Virus record (IMG/VR): IMGVR_UViG_2695420523_000005
Length of the DNA: 28,861 nt
Origin: a virus
Taxonomy: Duplodnaviria > Heunggongvirae > Uroviricota > Caudoviricetes
Direction: 5' to 3' (one strand)
Shown: piece after piece, positions 33 through 2,097 of the stretch
Layout of the letters: each line of letters starts with the position of its first letter
Numbering within the stretch: position 1 is the first letter of the stretch
Position numbers and translations under genes: made by a program
Notes under the pieces: generated by a model
What the model was told of the DNA's origin: nothing
The model's database searches: none
The model's input: only the letters and a program-made list of their open reading frames with translations

Positions 33-575
33 TCAATATTGGGCCGTTGGTGGAGATATAAGTGGATCACTTTTCATCCGTCGTTGACATTTAGTTACAG
101 GAACAGCCTTCACGGTTTTCACCGGCTTAACAACGCCAGCTCGACGCAGACCTTCCTCAATAACTTCTGCCGCATACCAGGTGTTCAGCGTTTTTAGCGG
201 ACCTCGCCCATTCTCATGGCGAATGATTGCCTCAACCAAAGGTCGAAGAATGTCGTAATCATGCAGATCGATAATCATGTCTGCGGTTACACCAACGGCT
301 TTAGACACCTCATTAATGTAGGCGTCAGTGTTGTTTTCATTCGGCGGTGCCCAACGTTCAATAACTTCACGAATGGTATCGATACTTGAGCCGTCTTTTG
401 CGCGACGCTTGTCGTGGTAGGTAATTAGAGTCACCGCCAGTGCACGAATCCCCCAAACAGGGTCTTTAAACGTGCAAAAGCGCGGTTCGTCTGGATTCGC
501 AACCAGACCTTGCCACGGTGATCCTTTATCAAGATTACCGGGGTTATTATTACGAATACCTCTCGGAGTCTTCAT
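33..575 (-). CDS. Conserved phage protein with N-terminal RNNNPGN motif; candidate endolysin / peptidoglycan hydrolase by context only
   Basis: ORF-track ORF 33..602. I prefer the internal ATG at 575 (MKTPRGIRNNNPGNL...) because AGGAG lies about 7 nt upstream on the minus strand (plus 580..586 region); stop TGA at 33..35. No catalytic motif of a known lysozyme, amidase or peptidase family recognised, so function is inferred from position after a small membrane protein. Confidence 0.55.
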   Translation of the reverse strand: MKTPRGIRNNNPGNLDKGSPWQGLVANPDEPRFCTFKDPVWGIRALAVTLITYHDKRRAKDGSSIDTIREVIERWAPPNENNTDAYINEVSKAVGVTADMIIDLHDYDILRPLVEAIIRHENGRGPLKTLNTWYAAEVIEEGLRRAGVVKPVKTVKAVPVTKCQRRMKSDPLISPPTAQY

Positions 576-588
576 CCTTGATCTCCTG

Positions 589-912
589 TTATTGCAGTCC
601 ATTTTTTACGCCATACGCGGCTAACCCCAAAAGCAGTGCGGTAATAATGAACGACGTTATTTTAGAAACAATGCCGCCAAAGAACCCACTTGAGATGGAA
701 TCTAACCGGTTAAGGAGTTTGTCCAGGTTGGAGTGTTGAATACTATGTTGCGCCGGGGTCATATCACCAAAGTAGGTTTTCAGCTGATCGTTGACCTCCT
801 GGCCAATTTCTTCACGTAGCTCTTTACCTAATTTGCCAACAACCTCCCGAGCAACGATCGCGGCAATACGCTCAACTTGCTCTGTTGTAACGCCCGCCAT
901 CTCGTTCGACAT
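589..912 (-). CDS. Small tail-anchored membrane protein (soluble charged N-terminal part, single C-terminal TM helix); candidate non-canonical holin / lysis-associated protein
   Basis: ORF-track ORF 589..924. ATG at 912 is preceded by GGAGG (plus 916..920 region); hydrophobic stretch ITSFIITALLLGLAAYGV near the C-terminus; sits immediately upstream of the 33..575 gene. Confidence 0.5.
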   Translation of the reverse strand: MSNEMAGVTTEQVERIAAIVAREVVGKLGKELREEIGQEVNDQLKTYFGDMTPAQHSIQHSNLDKLLNRLDSISSGFFGGIVSKITSFIITALLLGLAAYGVKNGLQ

Positions 913-993
913 GTTTTCCTCCATGAAAAGTCAAATCGGGATGGCGGATTTATATCACATTTCACCCTTTTGTTGTAGGTGTGTACTTACCTA

Positions 994-1227
994 TCATTCA
1001 GCATTGCAACGGACTGATGAGAAAGCACCTACTCCTACCCATCGCCAGTTATAGATGCTACCCGCTTTGTATAAGGTATAGTTGTTCACTTTTTTAACAG
1101 CATATATGGGTATGACTGTCTCCTGTCCACCAATGATAGCCTCACCGTAACATATAGGTGTCGGCAATTTCTGGCAGCCAGTAAGAGAGAGAACAACAGC
1201 TATTGTTAGAAATAATCTTTTCATCAT
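994..1227 (-). CDS. Small lipoprotein (signal peptide + lipobox LTGC); Cor/Llp-like receptor-blocking superinfection-exclusion candidate
   Basis: 77 aa, N-terminus MMKRLFLTIAVVLSLTGC is a textbook lipoprotein signal with cysteine at +1. Size and position distal to the tail fiber genes match Cor (phi80/N15/T1/HK022) and Llp (T5). Assignment is by architecture, not sequence identity. Confidence 0.6.
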   Translation of the reverse strand: MMKRLFLTIAVVLSLTGCQKLPTPICYGEAIIGGQETVIPIYAVKKVNNYTLYKAGSIYNWRWVGVGAFSSVRCNAE

Positions 1228-1234
1228 TTACTCA

Positions 1235-1843
1235 TCAGTTATACAGATTTCTATTTATTACCGGTACTCTGCCATTTACGCTAAAACTATGGCCGCCATT
1301 AAGTTGGTTTACGAATATCGAGCTAACAGTATTTCCATATGCCGCATATCCATAAACCATTGTCATGGCTCCGCCCGGTACTGGAACAGCGGACACATTC
1401 GCATATGTTGGGATTATCGCTGGAGGGTAATCAAAAACATGCCCTCCAGAGCTGTTCCACTCCGTATTATTAAGAAAGGTAAATGAAAGTGGGATATTTG
1501 CCGTATTATAGATTTCCTCCCCTTGTGCATTGAAAAAACTCATGCCCCAAGTTTCTTTTTTGGCTATACCTTTCGAAAATACGTATATCGTGGCACTAGA
1601 GTCGCTACCCCGACCTCCGAAACTGTAAATCACCTGGTTATTACGCACTATTCTGTTGGCTATTAATGAAACAGCTTTCGAATAGGCAACAAAAATCATC
1701 GGTGAACGATCTGGAGATATTTGGGTGTTAAACTCTGTCCCGCCAGACAAAGAAACAACCTGCTTTCTCTGAAAAACGATAGGAGACAAAGAAGGAGACA
1801 TCCAGACCTTCCCGTCAGATCGATATATCTTGCTTCCGTACAT
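1235..1843 (-). CDS. Hypothetical protein (Gly/Ser/Asn-rich, probably beta-rich); candidate adhesin, fiber accessory protein or moron
   Basis: 202-aa ORF; ATG at 1843..1841 overlaps the upstream stop (TAATG); no SD; region visibly AT-richer than the tail genes. Confidence 0.55.
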   Translation of the reverse strand: MYGSKIYRSDGKVWMSPSLSPIVFQRKQVVSLSGGTEFNTQISPDRSPMIFVAYSKAVSLIANRIVRNNQVIYSFGGRGSDSSATIYVFSKGIAKKETWGMSFFNAQGEEIYNTANIPLSFTFLNNTEWNSSGGHVFDYPPAIIPTYANVSAVPVPGGAMTMVYGYAAYGNTVSSIFVNQLNGGHSFSVNGRVPVINRNLYN

Positions 1844-2097
1844 TATTTTTGAAAAACCAATATGTTTAAATTGCCACTAGCTCCAGACCACGAAATGGTA
1901 TTTCCAGAAACCGTAAGACTTGTGTATTTTCCATTGGTTACGTCCATTATGTAATAGTCGATTCCCAATCCCGCCTCAACCTCATATGTTCTACTTCCTG
2001 AACCAGAGGGAGTAAAATAATCGAGGTAATAAACAGGGGCCAACGCATCGACCATCTCCTGTCTTGATGGCGACCAAACCTGTGCACCATAGCTCAT
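1843..2097 (-). CDS. Hypothetical protein; translationally coupled to, or frameshift-split from, the downstream 202-aa ORF
   Basis: 84-aa ORF; ATG at 2097 with AAGGA about 8 nt upstream; stop TAA at 1845..1843 overlaps the next start. Confidence 0.5.
   Translation of the reverse strand: MSYGAQVWSPSRQEMVDALAPVYYLDYFTPSGSGSRTYEVEAGLGIDYYIMDVTNGKYTSLTVSGNTISWSGASGNLNILVFQK

Follow-up and report, generated by a model that had tools for sequence, protein, structure and literature searches.

The stretch of DNA considered here is a window of 28,861 nucleotides (nt) from a tailed virus (Caudoviricetes; IMG/VR record IMGVR_UViG_2695420523_000005), and our subject is the block of five minus-strand genes that occupies its positions 33 to 2097. 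This block is probably where the late operon of an SSU5-like Escherichia coli phage-plasmid ends, in a known arrangement of a T1/N15-type recognition/exclusion cassette followed by lysis genes, here cut by the insertion sequence (IS) IS100. That the block consists of these two modules we hold to be very likely. The arrangement as such is already known from SSU5. A preliminary description, made from the letters alone, had taken the same genes for an uncharacterized accessory island, a view that gave way once all five proteins proved to belong to existing phage families, to be annotated in SSU5, and to occur in 72 plasmids of PLSDB. For annotation purposes, the block should be read as a receptor-specificity/exclusion cassette plus a lysis cassette and not as an island of unknown genes.

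Architecture and relatives of the block

All five open reading frames (ORFs) are present on the minus strand, with the ends that the preliminary description had given them. Three of them make up module A, an "extended cor cassette" (994-2097): an 84-amino-acid (aa) ORF (1843-2097; phrog_557) homologous to T1 gp32, N15 gp22, and SSU5_023; a 202-aa ORF (1235-1843; phrog_425) homologous to T1 gp31, N15 gp23, and SSU5_024; and the gene for the 77-aa exclusion lipoprotein Cor (994-1227; NF047972, phrog_1119, lipobox LTGC). Module B (33-912) is the start of a lysis cassette. It comprises a tail-anchored membrane protein of phrog_5093, whose 111-aa ORF (589-924) has a likely start at ATG 912 that gives 107 aa, and an endolysin of phrog_873, whose 189-aa ORF (33-602) carries GIRNNNPGN and has its likely start at ATG 575. 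The packing is as tight as had been described: the 84-aa and 202-aa genes share one base (TAATG), cor starts 7 nt past the 202-aa gene, about 70-80 nt lie between cor and the membrane-protein gene, and 13 nt separate the latter from the endolysin start.

The descriptive labels given to the proteins hold up as well, namely, the LTGC lipobox of the 77-aa protein, the single C-terminal hydrophobic segment of the 111-aa protein, and the GIRNNNPGN of the last ORF. So does the placement of the genes beyond a lambda-type tail set, in a region typical for exclusion, fiber-accessory, and lysis genes; upstream in the window are a T1/lambda-like J protein, a tape measure protein, and head genes. The further statement that no motif assigns a function with confidence fails for two of the five proteins, the lipoprotein being covered by an equivalog model for Cor and the RNNNPGN protein being an Enc34-type endolysin with a solved homologue.

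In PLSDB, 72 plasmids cover at least 80% of bases 1-2200. All are replicons of E. coli or E. fergusonii, with sizes of about 95-200 kb and mostly about 110 kb, and among the matches listed they align over 90-2200 or 90-2112 at 98-99.9% identity. The phage records that match the block are those of the SSU5-like phage-plasmids Cyrano, PhiR41_1, CMS-2020a, and SSU5. SSU5 has these five genes, likewise ordered, after its tail fiber (SSU5_023-SSU5_027); they are labeled there outer membrane protein, membrane associated protein, Cor, putative holin, and endolysin, with spanin genes coming next. The first four window proteins are 69%, 75%, 57%, and 95.5% identical to their SSU5 counterparts, and the holin-endolysin DNA is 83% identical. 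The window departs from the SSU5-type block in that IS100 interrupts its endolysin and no spanin genes lie within it, and from both SSU5 and pLAU-OXA1 in having a fiber variant with no tfa or adhesin gene between fiber and cassette. The plasmid pLAU-OXA1 also carries the five genes, and after them a spanin-like ORF of 83 aa with a membrane anchor. In Cyrano, the lysis genes are present at 98% identity, but the cor cassette is missing from this position. The block is not a single unit but two modules that differ in distribution and in base composition.

Base composition and the accessory-island proposal

The guanine-plus-cytosine (GC) content of bases 91-2097 is 44.3%, against 48.3 ± 1.9% in windows of the same length elsewhere, none of which is as low. 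The low value is accounted for by cor (41.5%), the 202-aa and 84-aa genes (42.2% and 42.0%, respectively), and the final 500 bp of the fiber gene (42.1%); the membrane-protein and endolysin genes, at 46.7% and 48.4%, match the backbone. The GC fraction at third codon positions is 0.37-0.39 in the 84-aa, 202-aa, and cor genes, 0.45-0.51 in the lysis genes, and 0.46 in J. The low-GC block of the preliminary description is thus real for cor and the two genes before it but does not extend to the membrane-protein and endolysin genes; the low-GC tract coincides with the host-range region and not with the five-gene block.

These data bear on the proposal, in line with the preliminary description, that the block is a horizontally acquired low-GC accessory island with a new function, such as defense, a toxin, or a novel route to lysis. 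Although three genes do lie about 6 GC points under the backbone, two gene families are without proven function, and Cyrano lacks the cassette at this site, all five proteins fall in existing phage families with conserved context, the lysis genes are at backbone GC, and the low-GC tract falls on the host-range region, which is typically mosaic. PADLOC defense models match none of the five proteins. We find such an island hardly credible. Homology of all five proteins to ordinary lysis or fiber-assembly proteins, with a composition like that of the rest of the operon, had been set against it as the opposite outcome, and what was found lies halfway: confident functional homology for two of the five, family-level homology with a disputed function for another two, position only for the remaining one, and a distinct GC content in three.

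Other searches added little. Pfam and NCBIfam models, run on the five proteins, matched Cor only, apart from a lipoprotein signal, and Rfam returned zero matches in bases 1-2400 at E values up to 1. A promoter and terminator scan called three promoter-like and two terminator-like sites, counts that are not above those in shuffled sequence and that thus give no grounds for assuming that a moron is transcribed here as a unit of its own.

The extended cor cassette

The 77-aa protein is, by its sequence, the superinfection-exclusion outer-membrane lipoprotein Cor, and by family membership it would exclude FhuA-dependent phages. It scores 82.1 bits against the NCBIfam equivalog NF047972, "phage exclusion lipoprotein Cor" (cutoff, 31; E = 2.1e-23), and also matches phrog_1119 (E = 2.3e-30). 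The protein has a lipoprotein signal peptide with the lipobox LTGC, MMKRLFLTIAVVLSLTGC, with Gln at position +2. Residues C18, P22, and C26 are invariant in an alignment with the SSU5, T1, tiwna, and Rtp45 proteins; identity to SSU5 Cor is 57%, and T1 Cor can also be aligned, with the conserved Cys residues in register. Exported to the outer membrane, Cor would block the receptor of the cassette from the periplasmic side, and the carrier cell would thereby be shielded from superinfection and its progeny kept off debris.

Neither of the two proteins encoded ahead of cor has a signal peptide or a membrane segment (the Kyte-Doolittle maxima over 19 residues are 1.24 and 0.54), so their database labels of "outer membrane" and "membrane associated" protein are unsupported. 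The 84-aa gene is, to judge from the TAATG junction, translationally coupled to the 202-aa gene, and by profile comparison its product is a free-standing paralogue of the 202-aa protein's N-terminal half (probability, 85%; E = 6e-6). The 202-aa protein is predicted to be soluble and all-beta. The pair contains three copies of the motif (Y/W)G-x-x-[IVF]-x-[DNS]-x-x-G, one at the N terminus of each protein and one at residue 98 of the larger; these may be signs of a repeated domain or of a hairpin used for docking. Similar strings are seen in Rtp44 (L007 6753-7688) at the N terminus and residue 210, with weak statistics (single pairwise hhalign, E = 4e-5 to 0.016).

PGAP/RefSeq calls the phrog_425 gene at 188 aa, with the start MSPSL... 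and with window positions 1802-1843 left out (L001 7146-7712, L002 9160-9726). The 202-aa form is the correct one, given the conserved N terminus MYG-x-x-I-x-x-x-DG-x-x-W of the homologues in tiwna, Shiga toxin (Stx) phages, and JenP1 and the TAATG coupling. Word-indexed homologue searches with single proteins returned close SSU5-like relatives only, and a profile of distant members reached further.

The same two PHROG families are found well outside the SSU5 group. In T1, the members are ST32 (phrog_557) and ST31 (phrog_425), whose annotation notes a similarity to N15 gp22/gp23; the small gene comes first, then the large one, then cor. The window shares with the T1/N15/HK022/phi80 cassette these two families plus Cor, the gene order, the coupling of the small and large genes, and a T1-type tip of J; it differs from T1 in having all three genes on one strand, where cor of T1 is inverted, and in belonging to a 110-kb phage-plasmid. 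In a BLASTP comparison, window J is 27% identical to T1 gp33 over 1025 aa and 32% identical over the last 320 aa to the C terminus, where the tip reads ...RVRIGRL in the window and ...RVQIGRL in T1. In tiwna and JenP1 the pair adjoins the 3' end of J, and in Stx phages it comes after the tail fiber genes. Upstream of the tiwna pair, gp41 (L003 4451-4720), labeled "hypothetical protein," is an LTGC lipoprotein with a weak Cor match (phrog_1119, E = 1.6e-7); the gp41-gp40-gp39 layout of lipoprotein, small, and large genes is convergent with J, like that of rtp45-rtp44.

Among SSU5-like genomes, an exhaustive check, made for pLAU-OXA1 only, found exactly one pair, at the tail locus, and each tblastn search of SSU5 gave one matching place, also at the tail locus. 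In Cyrano, a JenP1-type phrog_557/phrog_425 pair lies at 81933-82831 (L030 4001-4899) among early/accessory genes (TciA/B-like, DUF4942, Ead/Ea22); no lipoprotein gene adjoins it, and pLAU-OXA1 has no pair at that site. That each SSU5-like genome examined has one pair, placed at one or the other of two loci, is in keeping with a single function that is required. In pLAU-OXA1, which is the closest intact relative of the window element, the accessory region that adjoins the site of the Cyrano pair carries ISEcp1-blaCTX-M-15 (90033-92426; L032 40033-42426).

Possible roles of the 84-aa/202-aa pair

For the pair itself we lean somewhat toward a role in receptor binding. The 202-aa protein would be a soluble virion protein docked on the T1-like C-terminal tip of the central fiber protein J, from where it would bind the terminal outer-membrane receptor, and the 84-aa protein would probably be its adaptor or co-subunit. 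FhuA is the predicted receptor, on the grounds that Cor is part of the cassette and that the three-gene cassette correlates with FhuA dependence in T1, HK022, N15, ES18, phi80, and BASEL phages (PMC13164509, section 2.5). The locus downstream of gpJ has been treated as coding for receptor-binding proteins (RBPs) with cognate exclusion factors (PMC8594841). A 2026 preprint describes an FhuA-specific RBP family with accessory proteins at this locus and a C-terminal part of J that co-varies with the locus-encoded RBP (bioRxiv 10.64898/2026.04.02.716166).

The best structural match, which may point to a shared fold, is to a validated LptD-binding RBP, and JenP1 gp21, a member of phrog_425, also gives a weak match to the Rtp44 RBP family, phrog_1265 (E = 6.5e-5). 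The adjoining of an exclusion lipoprotein gene to the 202-aa gene (at 7 nt) is a likeness to the RBP and superinfection-exclusion lipoprotein of Rtp44/Rtp45 and Oekolampad, which are directed to LptD, and to T5 pb5/Llp, directed to FhuA. Compared with Rtp44, the 202-aa protein has no significant sequence similarity and a different predicted receptor, and the binding unit in the window would consist of two polypeptides (84 plus 202 aa) as opposed to one of about 311 aa.

Several points weigh against a receptor-binding role. We know of no experiment that places any phrog_425 or phrog_557 protein in a virion or shows receptor binding by one, and SSU5 itself is reported to be specific for the lipopolysaccharide core. 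The cassette is not directly downstream of J (6310-11040), as the 4-kb side-fiber gene (2188-6216) lies between them, as it does in SSU5; the Cyrano pair is found among early/accessory genes; and the window proteins are only 15-24% identical to the T1 proteins, for which reason we infer FhuA specificity from Cor alone. The AlphaFold2 model of the 202-aa protein is only moderately confident, with residues 147-190 at a predicted local distance difference test score under 50, and a Foldseek search of this model against the PDB gave no significant match. Profile comparison by hhalign of the phrog_425 family with an Rtp44-family alignment was not significant (probability of about 3%), nor were comparisons of the phrog_425 and phrog_557 alignments with Rtp44 alone and with a 15-sequence Rtp44-family alignment, in which only a short G-x-x-I-x-N-x-x-G motif recurs; the window 202-aa protein gave no match to phrog_1265. 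In addition, the 2026 KanT1 paper describes the two upstream proteins as being of unknown function, with no Foldseek or HHpred matches, and guesses at a role in exclusion (PMC13164509, section 2.5).

According to that guess, the two proteins would be envelope-associated partners of Cor, and not virion proteins, in a three-component superinfection-exclusion system. Besides having been proposed explicitly in the KanT1 paper (PMC13164509, section 2.5), such a system would be in keeping with the co-occurrence of the pair and cor in T1, N15, HK022, phi80, SSU5, and the window, with the PHROGs class "moron/host takeover" and the membrane labels, and with the position of the Cyrano pair among nonstructural genes. 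It would leave export unexplained, however, as there is no signal peptide, lipobox, or membrane segment in either protein, and the pair is found without any Cor in JenP1, Stx phages, and Cyrano. Moreover, the pair in T1 runs in the direction of J between annotated terminators, with cor on the opposite strand, which suggests separate expression, and the best structural match is an RBP. We consider an exclusion role for the pair unlikely and favor receptor binding on the strength of the putative fold match to a validated LptD-binding protein and the lack of an export signal. The choice between the two concerns T1, N15, phi80, and Stx phages as much as the present element.

The pair might also serve as chaperones or adaptors for the upstream side tail fiber, replacing an absent Tfa. 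It does come directly after the fiber gene, the window has no tfa between the two where pLAU-OXA1 and SSU5 have one, and the low-GC tract takes in the fiber tip. Against this, pLAU-OXA1 and SSU5 hold a Tfa/adhesin gene in addition to the pair, and in T1, tiwna, and JenP1 the pair abuts J, with the lateral fiber gene elsewhere. Since the pair is 99-100% identical to that of pLAU-OXA1 while the fibers differ, it does not co-vary with the fiber, and we rejected this role as highly unlikely.

Two more far-reaching views we put forward tentatively. In the first, the pair would be a split receptor-binding unit that shares its fold, and possibly its ancestry, with the single-chain LptD-binding RBPs of Rtp and Oekolampad. 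The (Y/W)G-x-x-[IVF]-x-[DNS]-x-x-G hairpin would open each domain of the split unit and would also dock on the tip of J. If true, this would merge RBP families that the 2026 preprint calls unrelated. In the second, the phrog_5093 protein of the lysis cassette, in which an invariant G...H-x3-H motif precedes the C-terminal anchor, would be a new type of lysis-timing protein and not a plain holin.

The truncated endolysin and IS100

The last gene of the block is a truncated endolysin of the Enc34/M4Lys type (33-575, minus strand), of which codons 1-162 are phage sequence (90-575) and a further 18 codons plus the stop codon belong to IS100 (33-89). Its likely start, ATG 575, has AGGAG 7 nt upstream and is also the start of the 230-aa protein of pLAU-OXA1. 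The window protein matches the phrog_873 endolysin at E = 3.7e-72, and residues 3-151 of the intact 230-aa relative in pLAU-OXA1 align with PDB 7Q47 ("Endolysin") at E = 2.6e-54; the sequence match and a literature search point to 7Q47 as the catalytic domain of Enc34. RHENG, which contains the catalytic Glu, ERWAPP, and DAYIN all align with 7Q47, and the Glu, Trp, and Tyr are retained in the window protein. The PHA02564 family is characterized by a permuted lysozyme-like fold, a catalytic Glu, and conserved Trp and Tyr residues (PMC8943055).

The likeness to Enc34 ORF39 and BSPM4 M4Lys (PHA02564) extends over the catalytic domain, with GIRNNNPGN, ERWAPP, and RHENG, and in the intact relative also to the C-terminal membrane domain that endolysins of this type possess (PMC7143992). 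The window copy is unlike them in having no membrane domain. Its residues 1-162 are identical to those of pLAU-OXA1 WP_000856757, after which the sequences diverge, and the hydrophobic segment at about residues 201-222 of the intact relative is absent. The truncation thus spares the catalytic domain but takes away residues 163-230 of the full-length form, which make up the linker and the C-terminal membrane domain.

The cause of the truncation lies at positions 1-89 (plus strand), which are the right end of IS100 (IS21 family) and consist of the 3'-terminal 23 nt of istB, with its stop codon at 21-23, followed by the terminal inverted repeat, which ends in ...GTTGACA at 89. Over 89-91 nt, this end is 98.9-100% identical to copies of IS100 in numerous phage and plasmid records; in NC_049344, the match spans from the last 23 nt of the annotated IstB coding sequence to the IS end. 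Identity to intact plasmids begins at base 90. We are highly confident that IS100 truncates the endolysin after codon 162. The 189-aa ORF is a phage-IS fusion that reads through the junction for 18 foreign codons, which the preliminary description overlooked, and this RNNNPGN ORF should be flagged as an IS100-disrupted endolysin.

One might suspect instead an assembly artifact at the end of a contig, with an intact endolysin in the real element, given that the window opens within a multicopy IS, of which it includes just 89 nt, the sort of place where contigs built from short reads typically end, and that the junction occurs in none of 72,556 plasmids (PLSDB) and none of 5,426 complete E. coli genomes. 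IS100 is known, however, from inside phage genes, such as the tail sheath gene that it splits in NC_049344, and the breakpoint lies exactly at the IS terminus (...GTTGACA, base 89), as in real transposition, which favors a real insertion over a chimera. An artifact seems to us rather improbable.

In the intact protein, a muramidase-like catalytic domain would normally reach the wall by means of its own C-terminal membrane domain. M4Lys lyses cells alone, and without its membrane domain there is no lysis, even when the neighboring gene is co-expressed (PMC7143992, sections 3.2 and 3.6). By inserting after codon 162, IS100 would have removed the membrane domain and separated the spanin genes from the late operon. 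Because its endolysin has lost the C-terminal membrane domain, the element is probably lysis-impaired or defective, which is an extrapolation from M4Lys and in that respect a weak point of our account. The far side of the IS, where spanin genes would be expected, lies beyond the window. SSU5-like phage-plasmids spread extended-spectrum beta-lactamase genes in E. coli, and the terminal receptor and the ability to lyse the cell bear on such transfer.

The tail-anchored protein of the lysis cassette

Upstream of the endolysin lies the gene for the 107-aa tail-anchored protein (589-912, minus strand; phrog_5093, E = 8e-69), a putative holin or lysis-timing protein with GGAGG upstream of ATG 912. 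The protein has one hydrophobic segment, at residues 77-100 of the 107-aa form (81-104 of the 111-aa ORF), and it matches neither a Pfam or NCBIfam model nor a described holin family. A full HMMER scan of 1.84 billion representatives yielded 56 relatives, and those scanned against PHROGs (49 of 49) fall in phrog_5093, all labeled "unknown function." Throughout this family, an N-terminal helical region is followed by a G...H-x3-H motif and then by the C-terminal hydrophobic anchor; G49, H56, and H60 are invariant across the 49 relatives and D71 nearly so, and the motif may serve in metal binding or sensing. Enc34 ORF38 has an N-terminal helix (PMC8943055), to which the C-terminal anchor of the window protein bears no resemblance.

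The gene is labeled "putative holin" in SSU5 and "Holin" in Cyrano, and it is directly upstream of the endolysin gene in 12 SSU5-like phages. A locus search with a sub-alignment found one further locus, in an unrelated high-GC 109-kb viral contig (L034 3022-4863), where a distant phrog_5093 relative heads a lysis cassette directly after a radical-SAM gene; behind it come a hydrophobic ORF of 101 aa that matches no PHROG, an endolysin of phrog_669, and ORFs that resemble spanin genes. Membership of the phrog_5093 protein in a lysis cassette is thus supported by two independent genomic contexts. Its identity as a holin is putative and derives from position only, and the separate hydrophobic 101-aa ORF that precedes the endolysin in the high-GC contig suggests that the protein may be a regulator and not a holin; both points count against the labels and against our account of the cassette. 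The protein would likely control the timing of lysis.

Side-fiber gene and spacer

The 90-nt spacer between the side-fiber gene and the cassette contains a perfect 14-bp hairpin (2117-2151, minus strand), and the RNA of 2098-2187 folds at -25.6 kcal/mol (z = -4.8 against shuffles). The hairpin has no U-run, and the terminator scan makes no call there. It lies at about base 2112, where identity to pLAU-OXA1-type plasmids ends, and may be a recombination joint or an element of processing or stability.

The side-fiber gene (2188-6216) encodes 1342 aa with five ...ATATKLQTAR... repeats and two similar C-terminal domains, and it includes an Ala/Ser-rich tract at 62% GC (about 5001-5500). Of the plasmids that match the block, H18-H24 do so through the last bases of the fiber gene, and H25 and later matches diverge from about base 2112.

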